Source: Nitrosopumilales archaeon (GTDB lineage: Archaea > Thermoproteota > Nitrososphaeria > Nitrososphaerales > Nitrososphaeraceae). Taken from it: DNA of 64,000 nt. The translations under genes and the position numbers were made by a program. Below, one piece after another: positions 57,727 to 64,000 of this stretch; the stretch's first letter is position 1; each line of letters starts with the position of its first letter. The notes beneath the pieces were generated by a model, which was not told where the DNA came from, ran no database searches, and saw only the letters and a list, made by a program, of their open reading frames with translations. Where the stretch lies: the NCBI GenBank assembly GCA_044507735.1, contig JBIQJB010000009.1, positions 1 to 64,000 of the forward strand. Reading direction: 5' to 3'.

Positions 57727-58953
57727 TCAGCTGACGTATGCCCGCTCTGCGTGCTGTGTAACGTCCAGCCCGATGTCTTCCTCTTCGTCCTTGACCTTGA
57801 GCCCAATCGTCTTGTCTATTATCTTCATGATGGCGATCGTTCCTCCAAAGCCCAGTACTGCAGATACGGCAACTCCTACCGCCTGGATTGGCAGCTGCAT
57901 CGGGTTTCCATACAGCCATCCGTCTGGACCAGCTGGGTTGATCAGGCTGCTTGCGACCAAGCCTATTGCCAGCGAGCCAACGATGCCTGTAACACCGTGG
58001 ACTGAGCTGACGTCCAGCGCATCGTCGATCTTTAGGTGCTCTTTGAGCAAGAGGATCGCAAAGTACGACGCAAAGCCCAGCACTATGCCCAGGAAGAAGG
58101 CATTCTGGCCGCTTATGAAGCCGGCAGCTGGTGTTATGCCTGCCAGACCGCAGATGGCTCCGTTGATTGCTGCTGTTGTAGATGGCTTGCCTGACCTCTT
58201 CCAAGAGAGCAGTATCCAGACAAACGCGGATGTCGACGCGCCTATTTGCGATGCGAGTATCGCGTTGGCTGCAAGCGCGCCGGATGCGAGGGCACTTCCA
58301 CCGTTAAAGCCGAACCATCCAAGCCACAGAAGGCTTGCACCAAGAACCGCCAGCGGTATGTTGTGCGGCACCATGATGTCCGGTCCAAAGTTCTTTCTCC
58401 TTCCAAGAACTAGAGCTGCTGCCAATGAGGCCATTCCTGCGCTGGTGTGAATCACCATGCCGCCTGCAAAGTCATATACTCCAAATTCTGAAAGCCATCC
58501 ACCGCCCCATATCCAGTGTGCCAGCGGATAGTAGATGAGAAAGCTCCAAGCTATGCTGAACACAAAGAATGCACTCCATTTTACCCTCTCTGCAAATGCT
58601 CCAGTGATCAGAAGTGGCGTAATTGCTGCAAACATCATCTGGAAGGTCGCAAAAGTGACGCCTGGAATGGTAGGAGCTATTTCAAGCGGCTCGTCGATTG
58701 GAACGTTGTTGAAGAACAGGTAGTCCAGCCCTCCAATAAAGCCTCCATTTGACGGTCCGAATGTCAGCGTAAAGCCTGCCACGAACCAGATGGTCGAAAG
58801 TATTGCCACGCCCGAGAACGTCTGCATTATGACCGAGAGCGAGTTCTTGAGTCGCAGAAGACCTGCTTCAAAAAAGCCAAGCGCAGGTATCATCAACAGC
58901 ACAAGACCCGTCGATACAAACATCCATGTAGTATCTCCAGTGTCGATCGGCAT
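57727..58953 (-). CDS. amt: Ammonium transporter (Amt family)
   Basis: FQMMFAAIT, DFAGG.VIH, WFGFNGGS and DDALDV..VHG (twin His) motifs. Confidence 0.97.
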   Translation of the reverse strand: MPIDTGDTTWMFVSTGLVLLMIPALGFFEAGLLRLKNSLSVIMQTFSGVAILSTIWFVAGFTLTFGPSNGGFIGGLDYLFFNNVPIDEPLEIAPTIPGVTFATFQMMFAAITPLLITGAFAERVKWSAFFVFSIAWSFLIYYPLAHWIWGGGWLSEFGVYDFAGGMVIHTSAGMASLAAALVLGRRKNFGPDIMVPHNIPLAVLGASLLWLGWFGFNGGSALASGALAANAILASQIGASTSAFVWILLSWKRSGKPSTTAAINGAICGLAGITPAAGFISGQNAFFLGIVLGFASYFAILLLKEHLKIDDALDVSSVHGVTGIVGSLAIGLVASSLINPAGPDGWLYGNPMQLPIQAVGVAVSAVLGFGGTIAIMKIIDKTIGLKVKDEEEDIGLDVTQHAERAYVS

Positions 58954-59039: not shown

Positions 59040-60191
59040 TTATTTCTCAAGTAACTCCCTGATGCTACTCGCGATGTGCTCTACGTCCGACTCACTAACG
59101 TGCGGGTGGGTCGGTAGCGACAGAACGTGGTCTGCACTCCACTCTGTTGCTGGAAGCCTCGTCCCCGGTGCCATTTGCAAGTAATATGGGGTCATGTGTA
59201 CCGGCGGGTTATAGTAGACTGTCGCACCAATCTGGCCATCTTTGACCAACTTCTCCCTTATTGCGTTCCTGTCGTGGTTATTGTTGTTGAACGCAACCGT
59301 ATAGAGGTACCAGTTGAACTTTTTGTCCGGTGTCTCTTCGGGCAACTTTACTCCGTATTTGCTGGCGGGTTGGAGGAGGAGCCGGCTTAGCATCTCTGCG
59401 TTGCGTCGCCTGATCTGGAGCATCTTGTCGAGCTTTTCCATCTGGACTTTTGCCACTGCGGCACTCAGCTCCGGCAGTCGCAGGTTGAGCCCCAGGACCC
59501 TTGTGTCGTAGCCCTCGACCATGCCGTGGTTCCTTATCATTTTCAGCTTGTCTGCAAGGTCATCACTGTCTGTAGCCACCGCGCCTCCTTCGCCGGCTGT
59601 CAGGACTTTGCTTGCATACATGGAAAAGCATCCCATGGCGCCAAATGTGCCTGTCTGCTTCTTCTTGTATGTCGAGCCCAAGGACTGACAGGCGTCCTCG
59701 ATTATGTCGATGGAGTGTTTTTGGGCAACCTCGGCAATCTCATCCATGTCGGATGGGTGTCCATATAGGTGCACCGGGATCACGACCTTGGATCTCTTGG
59801 TGATCTTTGATTCTAGATCGGATACGTCAATCGTATAATCATCTTTCTTGATGTCTACAAACACCGGCCTACCTCCTGCCGCCACGACAGCGTTGGCCGT
59901 CGCTACGAAGGTGAACGATGGTATGAGTACTTCGTCGCCCTGCTTTATTCCAGCTGCCATAAGCGCAGCTTGCAGCGCGGCGGTTCCTGAGTTGACTGAT
60001 ATGACATGCTTTGCGTTCAAGTAGCTCCTCATCTGCGCCTCGAAATCACGGACCCGCCTGCCTCCATCGCGGGCCGCCGTCGTCAGCGCATTTTCTTCAA
60101 GCACACTTGCCACCTCGCGCTTTTCTTCTTCTCCTATCCACGGTTTGTTAATCGGAATCATTTCATGCGGTACTTGATGCGTGGTCAACAT
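59040..60191 (-). CDS. DegT/DnrJ/EryC1/StrS sugar aminotransferase (start may be 60161)
   Basis: NSGTAAL, FTFVATANA, PVHLYG, EDACQ and SMYASK..GEGG motifs. Confidence 0.93.
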   Translation of the reverse strand: MLTTHQVPHEMIPINKPWIGEEEKREVASVLEENALTTAARDGGRRVRDFEAQMRSYLNAKHVISVNSGTAALQAALMAAGIKQGDEVLIPSFTFVATANAVVAAGGRPVFVDIKKDDYTIDVSDLESKITKRSKVVIPVHLYGHPSDMDEIAEVAQKHSIDIIEDACQSLGSTYKKKQTGTFGAMGCFSMYASKVLTAGEGGAVATDSDDLADKLKMIRNHGMVEGYDTRVLGLNLRLPELSAAVAKVQMEKLDKMLQIRRRNAEMLSRLLLQPASKYGVKLPEETPDKKFNWYLYTVAFNNNNHDRNAIREKLVKDGQIGATVYYNPPVHMTPYYLQMAPGTRLPATEWSADHVLSLPTHPHVSESDVEHIASSIRELLEK

Positions 60192-60471
60192 CTTACCATA
60201 TAGCGTTTTTGCTTATAATGGGTCTCGTTACAGAACTGACTAACATAATGGTTAAGAACGCTGACGGCAGCGATCTAATAATTCGAAAAAGACGAGCTTT
60301 GCGGGTTTAGAACTCGACAAACAACGTGTTTTCTTTGGTGATTGTTGAAAATAGTTCCCAGGATCGGATAGGCAGAGGAGAAAATACCCAGTACTAGAGC
60401 ATTATTCCGGTATGTTTCTATAGATGGAAATTGCACAACGGCTTTTAATTTACAAACCTTCTTCTAGTAAA

Positions 60472-61674
60472 ATGGACAGGAAAAAGGTTCTCATTCTTGG
60501 GATCGACGGGTACATAGGCTGGAGTCTTGCGATGCATCTCGCCACGAGGGGCCACAGGGTAGCCGGAATCGACAATTACTCTCGAAGGAGGAATGTTGCC
60601 AAAGTTGGATCGATATCTGCAACTCCAATCCGGGAAATGGAAGAGAGAATTCATGTTTTCAACTTTACATATCCTGACGCCAAAGGCGGAATCGCCTTCA
60701 AAGAAGTAGACCTTTTGGACTATAGCTTTGTAAAAGACTACATCAAGTGGTTCAGGCCCGACACCGTTGTCCATCTGGGAGAGCAGCCTTCCGCGCCGTT
60801 CAGCATGATCGACAGGGAGCATGCAGTCTATACGCAGCACAATAATGTGATCGGGAATCTCAATCTGCTTTACGCAATCAAGGAAGTTGTTCCTGACTGC
60901 CATCTGCTAAAGCTAGGAACAATGGGAGAATATGGATATGATACCGAGCTTGAAATCCCCGAAGGATTCTTCGAAGTTGAACACAAGGGAAAAAGAGCTA
61001 CAGTTCCATTTCCAAGGATGGCCGGCAGCTGGTACCACTGGAGCAAGGTGCACGACTCTAACAACATAATGTTTGCCTGCAGACTTTGGGGCCTAAGATC
61101 TACAGACGTAATGCAGGGAATAGTTTACGGCACAAGAACAAGCCAAATGGTCTCAGACGAATTGCTGACGAGGTTCGACTTTGACGAATGTTTCGGCACG
61201 GCCATTAACAGATTCTGCGCACAAGCTGTCATTGGACACAAACTAACTCCCTACGGGAAGGGTGGTCAGAAAAGAGGGTACTTGGCACTGACAGACTCTA
61301 TACAGTGCCTTACAATAGCCACCGAGAATCCGCCGGAAAAGGGAGAATACAGGGTATTCAACCAGTTAGACGCGGTCTACAAGATCAACGACCTTGCACT
61401 GACCGTTCAAAAGGTAGCCCGCAGGAAGGGCATGGATGTTGAAATCGAGCCGGTGGACAATCCAAGAGTCGAAAAGGAGGAACATGTATACAAAGTGCAG
61501 GCGGAAAAGCTGAGGAAGCTGGGATTCAAACCAACCAGAGGGTTGGAAGAAGAAGTTGACATCATGCTCGATGATCTAATGCGGTTCAGAAACAGAATTC
61601 TTGCAAAGAAAGAAGTGATAATGCCCAAGGCATACTGGAAACAGGTAAGCCAACCTCCCATGCTTTCACGATAG
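60472..61674 (+). CDS. sqdB: UDP-sulfoquinovose synthase (SqdB/SQD1/Agl3 family)
   Basis: G.DGYIGW, EQPSAPFSMIDR, KLGTMGEYG, GSWYHWSKVHDS, QGIVYG and RFCAQA motifs. Confidence 0.93.
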   Translation: MDRKKVLILGIDGYIGWSLAMHLATRGHRVAGIDNYSRRRNVAKVGSISATPIREMEERIHVFNFTYPDAKGGIAFKEVDLLDYSFVKDYIKWFRPDTVVHLGEQPSAPFSMIDREHAVYTQHNNVIGNLNLLYAIKEVVPDCHLLKLGTMGEYGYDTELEIPEGFFEVEHKGKRATVPFPRMAGSWYHWSKVHDSNNIMFACRLWGLRSTDVMQGIVYGTRTSQMVSDELLTRFDFDECFGTAINRFCAQAVIGHKLTPYGKGGQKRGYLALTDSIQCLTIATENPPEKGEYRVFNQLDAVYKINDLALTVQKVARRKGMDVEIEPVDNPRVEKEEHVYKVQAEKLRKLGFKPTRGLEEEVDIMLDDLMRFRNRILAKKEVIMPKAYWKQVSQPPMLSR

Positions 61675-61707
61675 GTCTGCTAGTGTGCAACAGGGAAGGT
61701 AAATCAA

Positions 61708-62448
61708 ATGGCGAGGATATTCCTAGGGGGCCTATTTGCTACGGTGGCAGTTCTGGTCGTTGGTGTGGCCATTGCCTTGCCGCCTTTCCTACAGCCACCT
61801 CGAGGTCCTCCAATAATGCTTGCCTTCAGCATCACAAAAGAAAATGACAACATCTTCGACTGGTGCTCTGGGCTATCTGACATTCTGAGGAACAATGATG
61901 TAGATGCAGTTGTCTTCTTCTCGGGAGTAATTGCAGAAAATCATCCGCAATGTGTCAATTCTTTTGGTGAGAACATTGACATTGGAAGCAGCACATATGG
62001 CTACAAGAACCTTGCCGCAATAACAGATTATTCGGAAAAACTCAAGGAAGTGCAAAATGGCAAGAATGCGGTTGACTTTGCAGGAGATCTCGATTCGAAA
62101 TCATTCAGAGCACCATATGGAAGCGTGGATGATGACATTTACTCGCTATTAGGCCGTTCTGGGATACTCGCCGACTTCTCTTACACCGATCGATATCACA
62201 AGTACTATCAAGGCAACTTCATCTGGTTCAGGATTACTGTTTACAACGCATCGTCTATTTCTGGAGAATACATTCGAGCGTCGCAATACAATGAAGATGA
62301 CAGGCCAATCCAAATCGACATAGATAACACCGTACCTCTGAGCAAGATTCAGGAAATCATTGACGCGCTAAAAGACAAACGGGCGAATTTCCTCAATGCG
62401 TCAGAGCTGACTGGCATTGAATTGACCGTACGAGGAGGTAGACAATAA
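61708..62448 (+). CDS. Membrane-anchored NodB/polysaccharide deacetylase-like protein with degenerate active site
   Basis: AVVFFSG..AE.HP, IGSSTYGY and FRAPYG motifs. The TFDD and HxxxH motifs are replaced. Confidence 0.8.
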   Translation: MARIFLGGLFATVAVLVVGVAIALPPFLQPPRGPPIMLAFSITKENDNIFDWCSGLSDILRNNDVDAVVFFSGVIAENHPQCVNSFGENIDIGSSTYGYKNLAAITDYSEKLKEVQNGKNAVDFAGDLDSKSFRAPYGSVDDDIYSLLGRSGILADFSYTDRYHKYYQGNFIWFRITVYNASSISGEYIRASQYNEDDRPIQIDIDNTVPLSKIQEIIDALKDKRANFLNASELTGIELTVRGGRQ

Positions 62449-62449
62449 C

Positions 62450-63853
62450 CTGCAAGTACAAGATCTACAAAAGTTTGAAAATACACAGACGATCGGCGCG
62501 GATGGAAGAATTGTAGTAAGAAGGTATGCTAAGGCACTAAGATTCCTCTTTCTGAGCGGGCTTGTAACATTTCTTGTTATTGGAGGATACAATACCATTG
62601 ATCTGAATAACCCTTTCATGGTCTATTCAACCATAGTTCCCATACATTCTGTCTTGATCCTGGTAGTTGCTTGGGGGATCTACAAAGACCCTGCACGGGG
62701 GCAACTTAGCAATGATCTGGTATCCGTGATAATACCAATCTACAACCAAAAATCTATGATCAGGTCAGTAATTGATGCGATATTTCGGTCTACATACCAA
62801 AACATCGAGATCATTGCAGTGAATGACGGGAGTAAAGATGGAACAAAGGAAGTCTTGAATGAGCTAGCTCTGAAATATCCTGGTCTTAAGGTTATTCATA
62901 AAGAGAATGCAGGAAAACGAAAAGCAGTTGGAACAGGATTTGCAGCTTCAAAAGGCCGGTTTGTTGTGTTTATTGACTCCGACAGCATTGTCCATCCAAA
63001 CGCGATAGAGCAATTCGTAAAGACATTCAACAGTGACGAGCGGATCGGAGCAGTTGTGGGAAATGCAAGAGCATGGAATGCAAATAATAATCTCCTTTCA
63101 AGACTCCAGTCGGTCTGGTACGACATCCAGTTCAACATACACAAGGCTTGTGAAAGCACATTTGGTCTCGTTATTTGCTGTTCCGGCTGTCTGTGTGCAT
63201 ATAGGCGCGAGGCCATAAGCGAGTTTATTCCACGCTGGGTTAACGCCAAGGTAATCATTGGAGATGATAGAGAACTAACATCATTTGTGACTGCGAAGTC
63301 CTGGGCAAAACCTGATCTGCTTTCGCATTTTGCGCAAGTGAACTTGGAAAAGGCAGCAAAATATGATGATGCAGAAGACAGGATTCTTACAGCGCAAACT
63401 ATAGTACAGTGGAAGGCGGTATATGTTGCATCGGCGGTTGTCTTTACCGACGTTCCTGAAAGATTCAAGGGATTCATTAAGCAGCAAATCCGGTGGAAGA
63501 GGGGGTATCTGCGCGCTCAGTTCTTTGTAAGCTCATTCTTTTGGCACAACAACCCAATCATGGCATTCATATTCTATCTCGAATTCATGGCATCACTTAC
63601 CATGCCACTCATCATTTTCACGGTTCTTGTGTACGAGCCGTTTTTCAGAGGAGAATATATGTTTAGCATTTTCTTCGTGATATCGCACATGGTGACTGGT
63701 ATGATTGAAGCAACTGATTCAAAGTTTAGAAATCCTAACGATCCTAACTGGAAATACAAGCCACTGATGAACGTATTGTCAACAACGGTACTTTCTTGGT
63801 TGGTAGTCTATTCCTGGCTTACACTGAAGACCGACAAGTGGGGGACGAGATAA
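62450..63853 (+). CDS. Processive GT2 polysaccharide synthase (hyaluronan synthase/NodC/IcaA-like), probable CTG start at 62450
   Basis: IIPIYN, NDGSKD, GKRKA, FIDSDS, CCSGCL.AYR, GDDR/EDR and QQIRW motifs with C-terminal TMs. The frame is open upstream of ATG 62618, with an extra TM and an RBS GAGGAGGT. Confidence 0.9.
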   Translation: MQVQDLQKFENTQTIGADGRIVVRRYAKALRFLFLSGLVTFLVIGGYNTIDLNNPFMVYSTIVPIHSVLILVVAWGIYKDPARGQLSNDLVSVIIPIYNQKSMIRSVIDAIFRSTYQNIEIIAVNDGSKDGTKEVLNELALKYPGLKVIHKENAGKRKAVGTGFAASKGRFVVFIDSDSIVHPNAIEQFVKTFNSDERIGAVVGNARAWNANNNLLSRLQSVWYDIQFNIHKACESTFGLVICCSGCLCAYRREAISEFIPRWVNAKVIIGDDRELTSFVTAKSWAKPDLLSHFAQVNLEKAAKYDDAEDRILTAQTIVQWKAVYVASAVVFTDVPERFKGFIKQQIRWKRGYLRAQFFVSSFFWHNNPIMAFIFYLEFMASLTMPLIIFTVLVYEPFFRGEYMFSIFFVISHMVTGMIEATDSKFRNPNDPNWKYKPLMNVLSTTVLSWLVVYSWLTLKTDKWGTR

Positions 63854-64000
63854 TTGATCCAACTTGCGGCTTCATCATTTGAGATTCTGCGCAGTCCTGG
63901 TCAACATCGATCGAATTCTAAACAAGAGCTATTGTCTGGCTATGTGTGCATAGAAAGCAACGATTCGAAATCACTCCAAGCATTAGGGAACCTGTGTACT

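Follow-up and report, generated by a model that had tools for sequence, protein, structure and literature searches.

An sqdB gene in a unit with a NodB-like protein and a synthase-like glycosyltransferase

The window analysed here is a 64,000-nucleotide stretch of archaeal DNA, positions 1-64000 of contig C40 (72,745 nt), from the genome (G000; 2.33 Mb, 55 contigs, completeness 97%) of a soil-type ammonia oxidiser whose nearest named relatives are Nitrososphaera archaea. In an open reading frame (ORF) reading of the window, three same-strand genes at 60472-63853 (+) encode a UDP-sulfoquinovose synthase (SqdB), a NodB-like protein and a family 2 glycosyltransferase (GT2). A preliminary description of this DNA had listed three co-oriented genes here, and they were found on the plus strand with the identities it gave. 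It had also stated gaps of 33 and 1 bp. The 33 bp between sqdB and the NodB-like gene was confirmed, and the 1 bp between the NodB-like gene and GT2 holds solely if GT2 begins at a non-canonical CTG at 62450. The unit comprises the following features, with the evidence for each in brackets:

60472..61674, + strand: sqdB, UDP-sulfoquinovose synthase, 400 aa (NF041015, SQD1 1qrr alignment)
61708..62448, + strand: membrane-anchored pseudo-deacetylase with the fold of carbohydrate esterase family 4 (CE4)/NodB, 246 aa (PF01522, AlphaFold2 model, Foldseek)
62434..62438, + strand: GGAGG, Shine-Dalgarno-like, 11 nt before CTG 62450 (read from the sequence; role putative)
62450..63853, + strand: hyaluronan-synthase-like, predicted processive GT2, 467 aa from CTG 62450 (Pfam, AlphaFold2, Foldseek, motifs)

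SqdB scored 619.9 bits against the NCBIfam equivalog model for UDP-sulfoquinovose synthase (NF041015; cut-off 575) and matched Arabidopsis SQD1 (1qrr) end to end (E 3e-120; residues 4-393 against 2-386), with about half of the residues identical over the full length. Its GIDGYIG, GTMGEYG and YHWSK stretches align with GGDGYCG, GTMGEYG and YHLSK of SQD1, which we take to be the Gly-rich NAD motif and the Thr and Tyr-His-x-x-Lys catalytic stretches, respectively. The longest ORF spans 60424-61674; Met 60472 agrees with the homologues and with position 1 of the family model. By this equivalog-level match the window SqdB is a UDP-sulfoquinovose synthase, as the preliminary assignment to SqdB/Agl3 homologues had held. 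A source of sulfite for SqdB is plausible, since a gene of the 3'-phosphoadenosine-5'-phosphosulfate (PAPS) reductase family was found in G000.

The NodB-like protein matched PF01522 at 42.2 bits (cut-off 23.1), and its AlphaFold2 model (predicted local distance difference test, pLDDT, 90.7) begins with a hydrophobic N-terminal helix at residues 2-23. The best Foldseek matches of this model were CE4 enzymes, with target-normalised TM-scores (TMt) of 0.7-0.8 (7fbw: E 4.5e-11, TMt 0.80); the CE4 pseudoenzyme BA3943 (7bkf) was also among them, at 14% identity. Aligned with the chitin deacetylase 2iw0, the protein has KENDN for TYDDG, STYGY for HTYAH and IDID for LSHD, so that the Asp-Asp of motif 1, the His...His of motif 2 and the His of motif 5 are all substituted and the R/K-A-P-Y motif alone is kept. 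None of the 26 NodB-like orthologues aligned (0/26) has the catalytic Asp, the metal-binding His-His pair or the catalytic His of CE4 enzymes, and W52, C53 and C82 are invariant across all 26. Because the CE4 catalytic and metal motifs are absent, the NodB-like protein is, judged by sequence, a pseudoenzyme and not a deacetylase. The model, the 2iw0 alignment and 26/26 orthologues all agree with the earlier view of a membrane-anchored NodB fold lacking catalytic Asp and His.

The GT2 matched PF00535, PF13641 and PF03142, with a weak match (E 6e-7) to Glyco_transf_21, the ceramide glucosyltransferase family. Its AlphaFold2 model (pLDDT 81; predicted TM-score, pTM, 0.84) shows long helices at both ends, two at the N-terminus and several at the C-terminus. 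In Foldseek, ranks 1-13 were held by Xenopus HAS1 and Chlorella virus hyaluronan synthase (CvHAS), with E 4e-19 to 2e-15 and query-normalised TM-scores (TMq) of 0.65-0.71 at 17-20% sequence identity, and cellulose and chitin synthases ranked after these hyaluronan synthases (HAS). In 31 GT2 sequences the motifs NDGSKDG, DSDS, DDRELT plus DDAEDRxLT, and QQIRW show little or no variation, and they align to CvHAS, as does the C-terminal WGTR. The preliminary description had seen a HAS/NodC-like synthase with QxxRW; QQIRW is indeed present, together with DSD and two DDR/EDR-LT motifs, on a fold nearest HAS. By motifs and modelled fold, the GT2 is of the processive, membrane-integrated synthase type, with the matching activity predicted. 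Family members are labelled 'hyaluronan synthase' in JGI records through automatic naming. Among named organisms, Candidatus Nitrososphaera gargensis has the closest GT2 homologue (P0001). Residues 268-316 hold two (D/E)DR-x-LT copies with a variable stretch of 25-40 residues, modelled at low confidence, between them; CvHAS has one such motif, GDDRRLT, to which both copies align. Three runs of complex prediction for the GT2 with the NodB-like protein scored 0.54, 0.01 and 0.00.

PgaC and NodC were the best-scoring NCBIfam equivalog models for the GT2, which nonetheless reached 154.3 bits against PgaC/IcaA TIGR03937 (cut-off 422.3) and 113.4 bits against NodC TIGR04242 (cut-off 550). The preliminary description had drawn an analogy with the synthase and deacetylase pairs that make poly-N-acetylglucosamine (PNAG) or Pel-type polymers. 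This analogy proved weak and the reading was rejected: both scores lie far under the cut-offs, the CE4-fold partner is dead and the nearest fold is HAS. No UDP-glucose dehydrogenase equivalog was found in the cassette.

Related cassettes usually carry a dehydrogenase-like gene

We surveyed related loci in a species-representative scan (one genome per species), which gave 77 loci, of which the 76 with a clear GT2 were counted. The NodB-like plus GT2 cassette is widespread, in Nitrososphaeria, Bathyarchaeia, Dehalococcoidia/Chloroflexi and one Methanocella metagenome-assembled genome (MAG). A NodB-like gene lies directly 5' of GT2 in 65/76 loci, and in relatives it often overlaps GT2 by 4 bp. 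A co-oriented gene like a nucleotide-sugar 6-dehydrogenase is present in 57/76 loci and sqdB in 3/76, and no locus has both (0/76). Neither partner was seen in the remaining 16, and in 13 of these the GT2 lies within 1.2 kb of the locus start, leaving the partner slot partly or wholly out of view. A further CE4 gene is nearby in 37/76 loci and GlmS in 6/76. Among an initial 41 relatives the NodB-like and GT2 pair also recurred, with sqdB adjoining it in G013 only. Thus sqdB occupies the slot of the dehydrogenase in a minority of loci, and with 57 of the 76 loci carrying the dehydrogenase and 3 carrying sqdB, the ancestral cassette would be independent of sulfoquinovose.

The archaeal dehydrogenase-like protein, encoded 5' of the NodB-like gene, is a conserved, truncated version with 282-312 aa in the loci examined; ORF calls from the first start give 282-362 aa across 26 loci (L024:708-1562, L025:9953-10840 and 24 more). 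It carries PF00984 and PF03721, the central and NAD domains, and three tested proteins scored 134-140 bits against TIGR03026 (cut-off 189.8), covering about the first 300 of 413 model positions. The GIGGHCLPKD stretch with the catalytic Cys of the UDP-ManNAc dehydrogenase 4r16 is kept, and the C-terminal UDP-binding domain is absent. In Dehalococcoidales, locus L187 has the order GlmS, full-length dehydrogenase (424 aa), NodB-like, GT2, CE4; its dehydrogenase reaches 370 bits against the same TIGR03026 cut-off, with TviB as nearest equivalog. Four other Chloroflexi loci have GlmS and dehydrogenase matches in the L187 order. From its gene content, the ancestral unit looks like one that equips a HAS-type enzyme to make an acidic polymer containing amino sugars. 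We found no literature describing a HAS-like cassette with a dead NodB-like partner.

The cassette was seen in Chloroflexi/Dehalococcoidia (L173, L187, L194, L195, L198, L215) and in Methanocella (L204), and the GT2s of these loci nest among Bathyarchaeia GT2s in the tree. This placement suggests cross-domain transfer of the cassette, with binning errors in the MAGs possible.

Linkage of sqdB to one GT2 clade

Six cassettes linked to sqdB were found: the window, G220 (L071), G013 (L023/L146), G195 (L081/L148), L160 and the metagenome locus L143; L140 has the same identities as L071 and was not counted apart. In G220 the arrangement is Amt-DegT <> sqdB-NodB-GT2 (85-90% identical). A partial sqdB lies at the end of a G017 contig, in the Amt-DegT synteny of the window. 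The G195 genome, titled Nitrosopumilaceae, has the order NodB-GT2-sqdB in place of the window type sqdB-NodB-GT2, and its trio lies among unrelated housekeeping genes (response regulator, luciferase-like, thymidylate kinase and others).

A single clade of the 76-row FastTree holds all six GT2s linked to sqdB (support 99), and IQ-TREE gave an SH-aLRT of 95 for a clade of four of them; the 'DH-linked' label in the IQ-TREE analysis took in G009 and G175, whose partner slot is out of view. All six clade GT2s with visible neighbours are linked to sqdB, across two archaeal families and two gene orders. The cassette sqdBs do not form one clade: that of G195 groups with other Nitrosopumilaceae-type sqdBs, and forcing sqdB monophyly cost 63.6 log-likelihood units (approximately unbiased, AU, test p = 0.000125, for a group named after an earlier tree was seen). 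Because there are two sqdB lineages and differing gene orders, the linkage between the GT2 clade and sqdB must have arisen or been renewed at least twice, and it survived a rearrangement. The preliminary description had proposed neighbourhood conservation of sqdB with a HAS-like GT2 as a check. Such conservation was found within one GT2 clade (6/6) and was not found in general (3/76).

Several clade substitutions lie beside conserved motifs: N357Q (6/6 in the clade against 0/66 outside), F383L/I (6/6 against 2/66, both L), Y424S/T (5/5 against 1/66) and D428N (5/5 against 7/66). A sharp donor-specificity signature for the clade is not claimed, as the discriminating GT2 columns fell from 29 (4 against 27 sequences) to 6 (6 against 66).

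A comparison of the window with L160:1247-4757, from a close relative, showed that sqdB is 94% and DegT 90% identical, with the NodB-like protein at 42% and GT2 at 56%. Since the pair diverged while sqdB stayed 94% identical, we interpret the difference as allelic replacement in which the NodB-like/GT2 pair alone was exchanged between the L160 and window types. Allelic exchange is usual for surface-polysaccharide loci. The downstream methyltransferase ORF is, by eye, near-identical between L160 and the window.

Other contexts of sqdB

Matches to NF041015 (E<=1e-60) were found in 42 of 401 genomes of the class, 14 of them above the family cut-off, and they include two further arrangements. In type B, seen as a full set in G020 (L040:1029-5735), co-oriented genes encode SqdB, a 206-aa protein without assignment, a PIG-L de-N-acetylase and a GT2/GT21-like membrane protein of 678 aa. 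Further loci of this type are L070 and L073-L077: the 678-aa GT2 was found close to sqdB in G257, G332, G319, G240 and G160, whereas in G220 some 10 kb separate it from the first sqdB. Type B is a further combination of sqdB, a deacetylase fold and a membrane GT2, assembled from unrelated parts. In type C (G030, L041:7967-12001; L083-L086, L089), seen in six genomes, an sqdB-like gene about 46% identical and below the NF041015 cut-off is followed by a family 4 glycosyltransferase (GT4) and a major facilitator superfamily (MFS) gene. By analogy, type C resembles the classical sqdB-sqdX-type sulfolipid arrangement.

The genome G220 has two sqdB copies, one in the HAS-like cassette and one in a type-B cluster. 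A single sqdB, located in the cassette, was found in G000 (97% complete), G013 (90%) and G195 (99%), and these three genomes have no relative of the type-B 678-aa GT2 (E<=1e-30) or of the type-C GT4 (E<=1e-20). Because sqdB is single and no type-B or type-C transferase relative was found, synteny points to the HAS-like GT2 alone as a candidate user of UDP-sulfoquinovose in G000, G013 and G195. Likewise, no GT4 or GT8 sulfoquinovosyl transferase adjoins sqdB in the window, and a relative of the G030 GT4 is absent from G000 at E<=1e-20.

Proposed role of the unit and its alternatives

We propose, at about even confidence, that the unit makes a synthase-dependent acidic surface or extracellular glycan in which UDP-sulfoquinovose replaces the usual C6-oxidised donor, and in which the dead NodB-like protein serves as an extracytoplasmic chain-binding partner. 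The unit would be a variant of the cassette of dehydrogenase, dead NodB-like protein and HAS-like GT2 in which sqdB has displaced the dehydrogenase. SqdB is predicted to turn UDP-glucose and sulfite into UDP-sulfoquinovose. The GT2 would then polymerise UDP-sugars at its cytoplasmic GT-A domain and extrude the chain via its own transmembrane channel, as modelled and by analogy with HAS. Judging from the swaps in gene context, one donor would be UDP-sulfoquinovose in place of the C6-carboxylated donor of the dehydrogenase, and the GlmS and CE4 genes beside related cassettes make N-acetylglucosamine (GlcNAc) the likely second sugar. The NodB-like domain, with its invariant Cys pair, is probably extracellular and held by one N-terminal helix; being unable, as predicted, to deacetylate, it most likely binds the chain or directs it as it emerges. 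A more specific version, that the clade makes a hyaluronan-like chain with 6-sulfo-quinovose for the uronic acid, for example alternating with GlcNAc, is put forward only tentatively. The polymer containing sulfoquinovose suggested in the preliminary description is thus backed by the gene identities and the clade linkage, and not by linkage in general or by the PNAG/Pel analogy. The idea, also in the preliminary description, that an anionic surface could concentrate ammonium found no support.

Several observations weigh against the proposed sulfoquinovose glycan. Within the class, sqdB occurs in at least two further settings, which points to other uses of UDP-sulfoquinovose. On the GT2 tree the clade association counts as one event; the rows are not independent replicates, and shared ancestry could explain much of the association. 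The number of discriminating columns shrank as sequences were added, and the identities between L160 and the window show that sqdB and the pair can be separated by recombination. The archaeal dehydrogenase-like protein is short and below cut-off, and replacement of a uronic acid is an analogy; moreover, the nearest models of the dehydrogenase act on N-acetylated sugars, and sulfoquinovose is not one. Finally, the window GT2 has no canonical start at its conserved N-terminus and may be expressed poorly or not at all.

The strongest alternative is that the linkage is not functional: the pair would make a GlcNAc-based polymer or oligomer, and sqdB, having simply come to lie in a variable glycan locus, would feed N-glycans or lipids via transferases elsewhere. 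We regard this as rather unlikely, although it would account for the 57 of 76 related cassettes that do without sqdB and for the other class contexts of sqdB. The recombination break between the window and L160 also fits it, as does the G+C content, which falls to 0.43-0.45 across the NodB-like/GT2 pair in the window. Furthermore, sulfoquinovose is known in Sulfolobus N-glycans, as indicated by the reference list of PMC12153357. Against a fortuitous neighbourhood, sqdB and a dehydrogenase-like gene are never together in the 76 cassettes, and the linkage holds in one GT2 clade through two families, two gene orders and two sqdB lineages. In addition, the G195 trio stands isolated among housekeeping genes, each of the two G220 clusters has its own sqdB, and the gaps of 33 and 1 bp in the window are compatible with a single transcript.

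A role of the GT2 as a lipid glycosyltransferase, which would place sulfoquinovose, or GlcNAc and then sulfoquinovose, on archaeol or glycerol dialkyl glycerol tetraether (GDGT) to give an archaeal sulfoglycolipid, appears improbable. Classically, sqdB is a sulfolipid gene, a role that speaks for this alternative. PMC10640624 likewise interprets sqdB of other Thaumarchaeota as a sulfolipid gene. The weak Glyco_transf_21 match of the GT2 points the same way, as do the loci elsewhere that combine sqdB with PIG-L and a GT2/GT21-like protein or with GT4 and MFS. However, the whole model, including its transmembrane part, is nearest HAS, at the TMq values given above, compared with a TMq of 0.51 for the Pyrobaculum mannosyltransferase, a lipid-directed GT2. 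The GT2 also has features of polymerising synthases, namely QxxRW, a duplicated EDR motif and WGTR at the C-terminus, and the usual companions of the cassette are GlmS and CE4 polysaccharide deacetylases.

Start codon of the GT2 gene

The GT2 frame is open from 62426 (475 codons), and no ATG, GTG or TTG occurs in it between the upstream stop at 62423 and 62618. The first canonical start is ATG 62618, giving a protein of 411 aa (62618-63853), the form that gene callers report (P0002). Conservation in 31/31 aligned orthologues extends over the N-terminal 56 residues, which contain a G-R-I motif as well as the first membrane helix. The homologous start is TTG in G220, ATG in L160 and CTG (62450) in the window, where it sits 1 bp after the NodB-like stop. 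The C at 62450 recurs in contigs from two further public runs (X17 record 19, X15 record 2) and is therefore no assembly slip, and the same CTG allele was found in runs from several studies. On this sequence evidence, GT2 probably starts at CTG 62450 and is translationally coupled to the end of the NodB-like gene, by reinitiation or near-cognate initiation. That the module is instead decaying in the window genome, with TTG/ATG changed to CTG and GT2 untranslated or truncated from ATG 62618 without its first membrane helix, would agree with the missing canonical start, the 411-aa calls and a C at 62450 that is real in three data sets, but has a slim chance given that the 168-nt extension is free of stops with its conserved residues intact, that GGAGG lies 11 nt upstream of a CTG placed 1 bp past the preceding stop, as suits reinitiation, and that the allele recurs across studies and so persists in populations.

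Comparison with known systems

Class I HAS systems pair the synthase with precursor genes: streptococcal hasA with the UDP-glucose dehydrogenase hasB, and chlorovirus HAS with UDP-glucose dehydrogenase and GFAT. The window GT2 is similarly a single membrane GT2 with DxD, (G/S)DDR-LT, QxxRW and WGTR aligned to CvHAS, and related cassettes likewise pair the GT2 with a nucleotide-sugar 6-dehydrogenase and often GlmS. In contrast to class I HAS, identity is 17-20%, the window GT2 ends at WGTR and its EDR motif is duplicated around the 25-40 residue insert; at the level of the gene set, the differences are the dead NodB-like partner (65/76 loci) and, here, sqdB as the acid-sugar gene. As in NodC/NodB and PgaC/PgaB (IcaA/IcaB), a GT2 synthase adjoins a CE4-fold protein. 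Unlike those pairs, the GT2 scores below the cut-offs, the CE4 partner is devoid of catalytic and metal residues, and neither the window nor the downstream contig showed PgaA/PgaD-like or IcaD-like genes. The NodB-like family shares with BA3943 of Bacillus anthracis a CE4 fold with catalytic residues missing, but differs in sequence (14% identity), in its single-pass anchor and in its gene coupling to a synthase.

The established routes for UDP-sulfoquinovose run from plant and cyanobacterial SQD1/SqdB with SqdX or SqdD to sulfolipid, and from Sulfolobus Agl3 to an N-glycan. The window SqdB is an equivalog-level member of this pathway family; unlike in sulfolipid operons, no SqdX-like GT4 adjoins it, its partners being a HAS-like GT2 and a pseudo-deacetylase. 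To our knowledge, sulfoquinovose is known from sulfolipids and Sulfolobales N-glycans and not from synthase-made polysaccharides. We found no literature tying sqdB to a HAS-like GT2 or to archaeal exopolysaccharide, supplements not being covered. If the tentative hyaluronan-like version is correct, its product would be the first polysaccharide in which a processive synthase incorporates a sugar with a carbon-sulfur sulfonate. Some ammonia-oxidising archaea would then carry a coat whose charge is permanent and does not depend on pH, and soils and sediments would hold sulfoquinovose in a form so far overlooked. Such a strongly anionic coat could affect cation binding, aggregation or virus resistance in ammonia oxidisers. 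A three-gene unit whose partner switches between a carboxylate maker and a sulfonate maker is a directly testable hypothesis, and it would reveal how a HAS-type enzyme chooses its acidic donor.

Genomic surroundings

Three further features flank the unit:

63854..64000 in the window, + strand: small ORF, 100 aa, directly after the GT2 stop, possibly part of the unit, and running to contig position 64156 (homologues in relatives)
59040..60191, - strand: DegT/DnrJ/EryC1-family sugar aminotransferase, divergent neighbour, context (PF01041, E 3e-115)
57727..58953, - strand: Amt ammonium transporter, context (PF00909, E 3e-109)

The Amt and sugar aminotransferase genes that the preliminary description had placed beside the unit are therefore present. 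The Amt-DegT synteny is kept in Nitrososphaera-type loci with either cassette type, sqdB or dehydrogenase, and the G195 locus has no DegT or Amt neighbours. A part for DegT and Amt in the system is unsupported, as they adjoin both cassette types and are missing at G195.

It had also been suggested that the operon continues beyond the window. The contig extends 8.7 kb further without more sugar genes, and the suggestion was rejected: about 900 bp with small ORFs, none above a Pfam cut-off, follow GT2. The genes downstream are, in order, the small ORF, a DNA methyltransferase-like gene, an aIF2-beta-like gene, a thioredoxin-like gene, GrpE-DnaK-DnaJ and Hsp20, with names read from translations rather than from a family scan. 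The ~900 bp 3' of GT2 (63854 to C40:64780) match G220 at ~70% DNA identity. The 100-aa ORF has homologues in G220 (79 aa) and L160 (111 aa) and a weak match in G013 (E 1e-12), and it matched no Pfam family. In relatives, short ORFs rich in Cys and His lie in the region after GT2; those of L160 have 58 and 54 aa.

Elsewhere in G000, two paralogous clusters were observed. One (C37:5487-16603) contains a short dehydrogenase 67% identical to that of G005, GlmS, a CE4 gene and a GT2 paralogue at 35% identity; the other (C33:72068-76903) contains a dehydrogenase-like gene, a PIG-L gene and a further GT2 paralogue. With these clusters, G000 may produce several synthase-type glycans.

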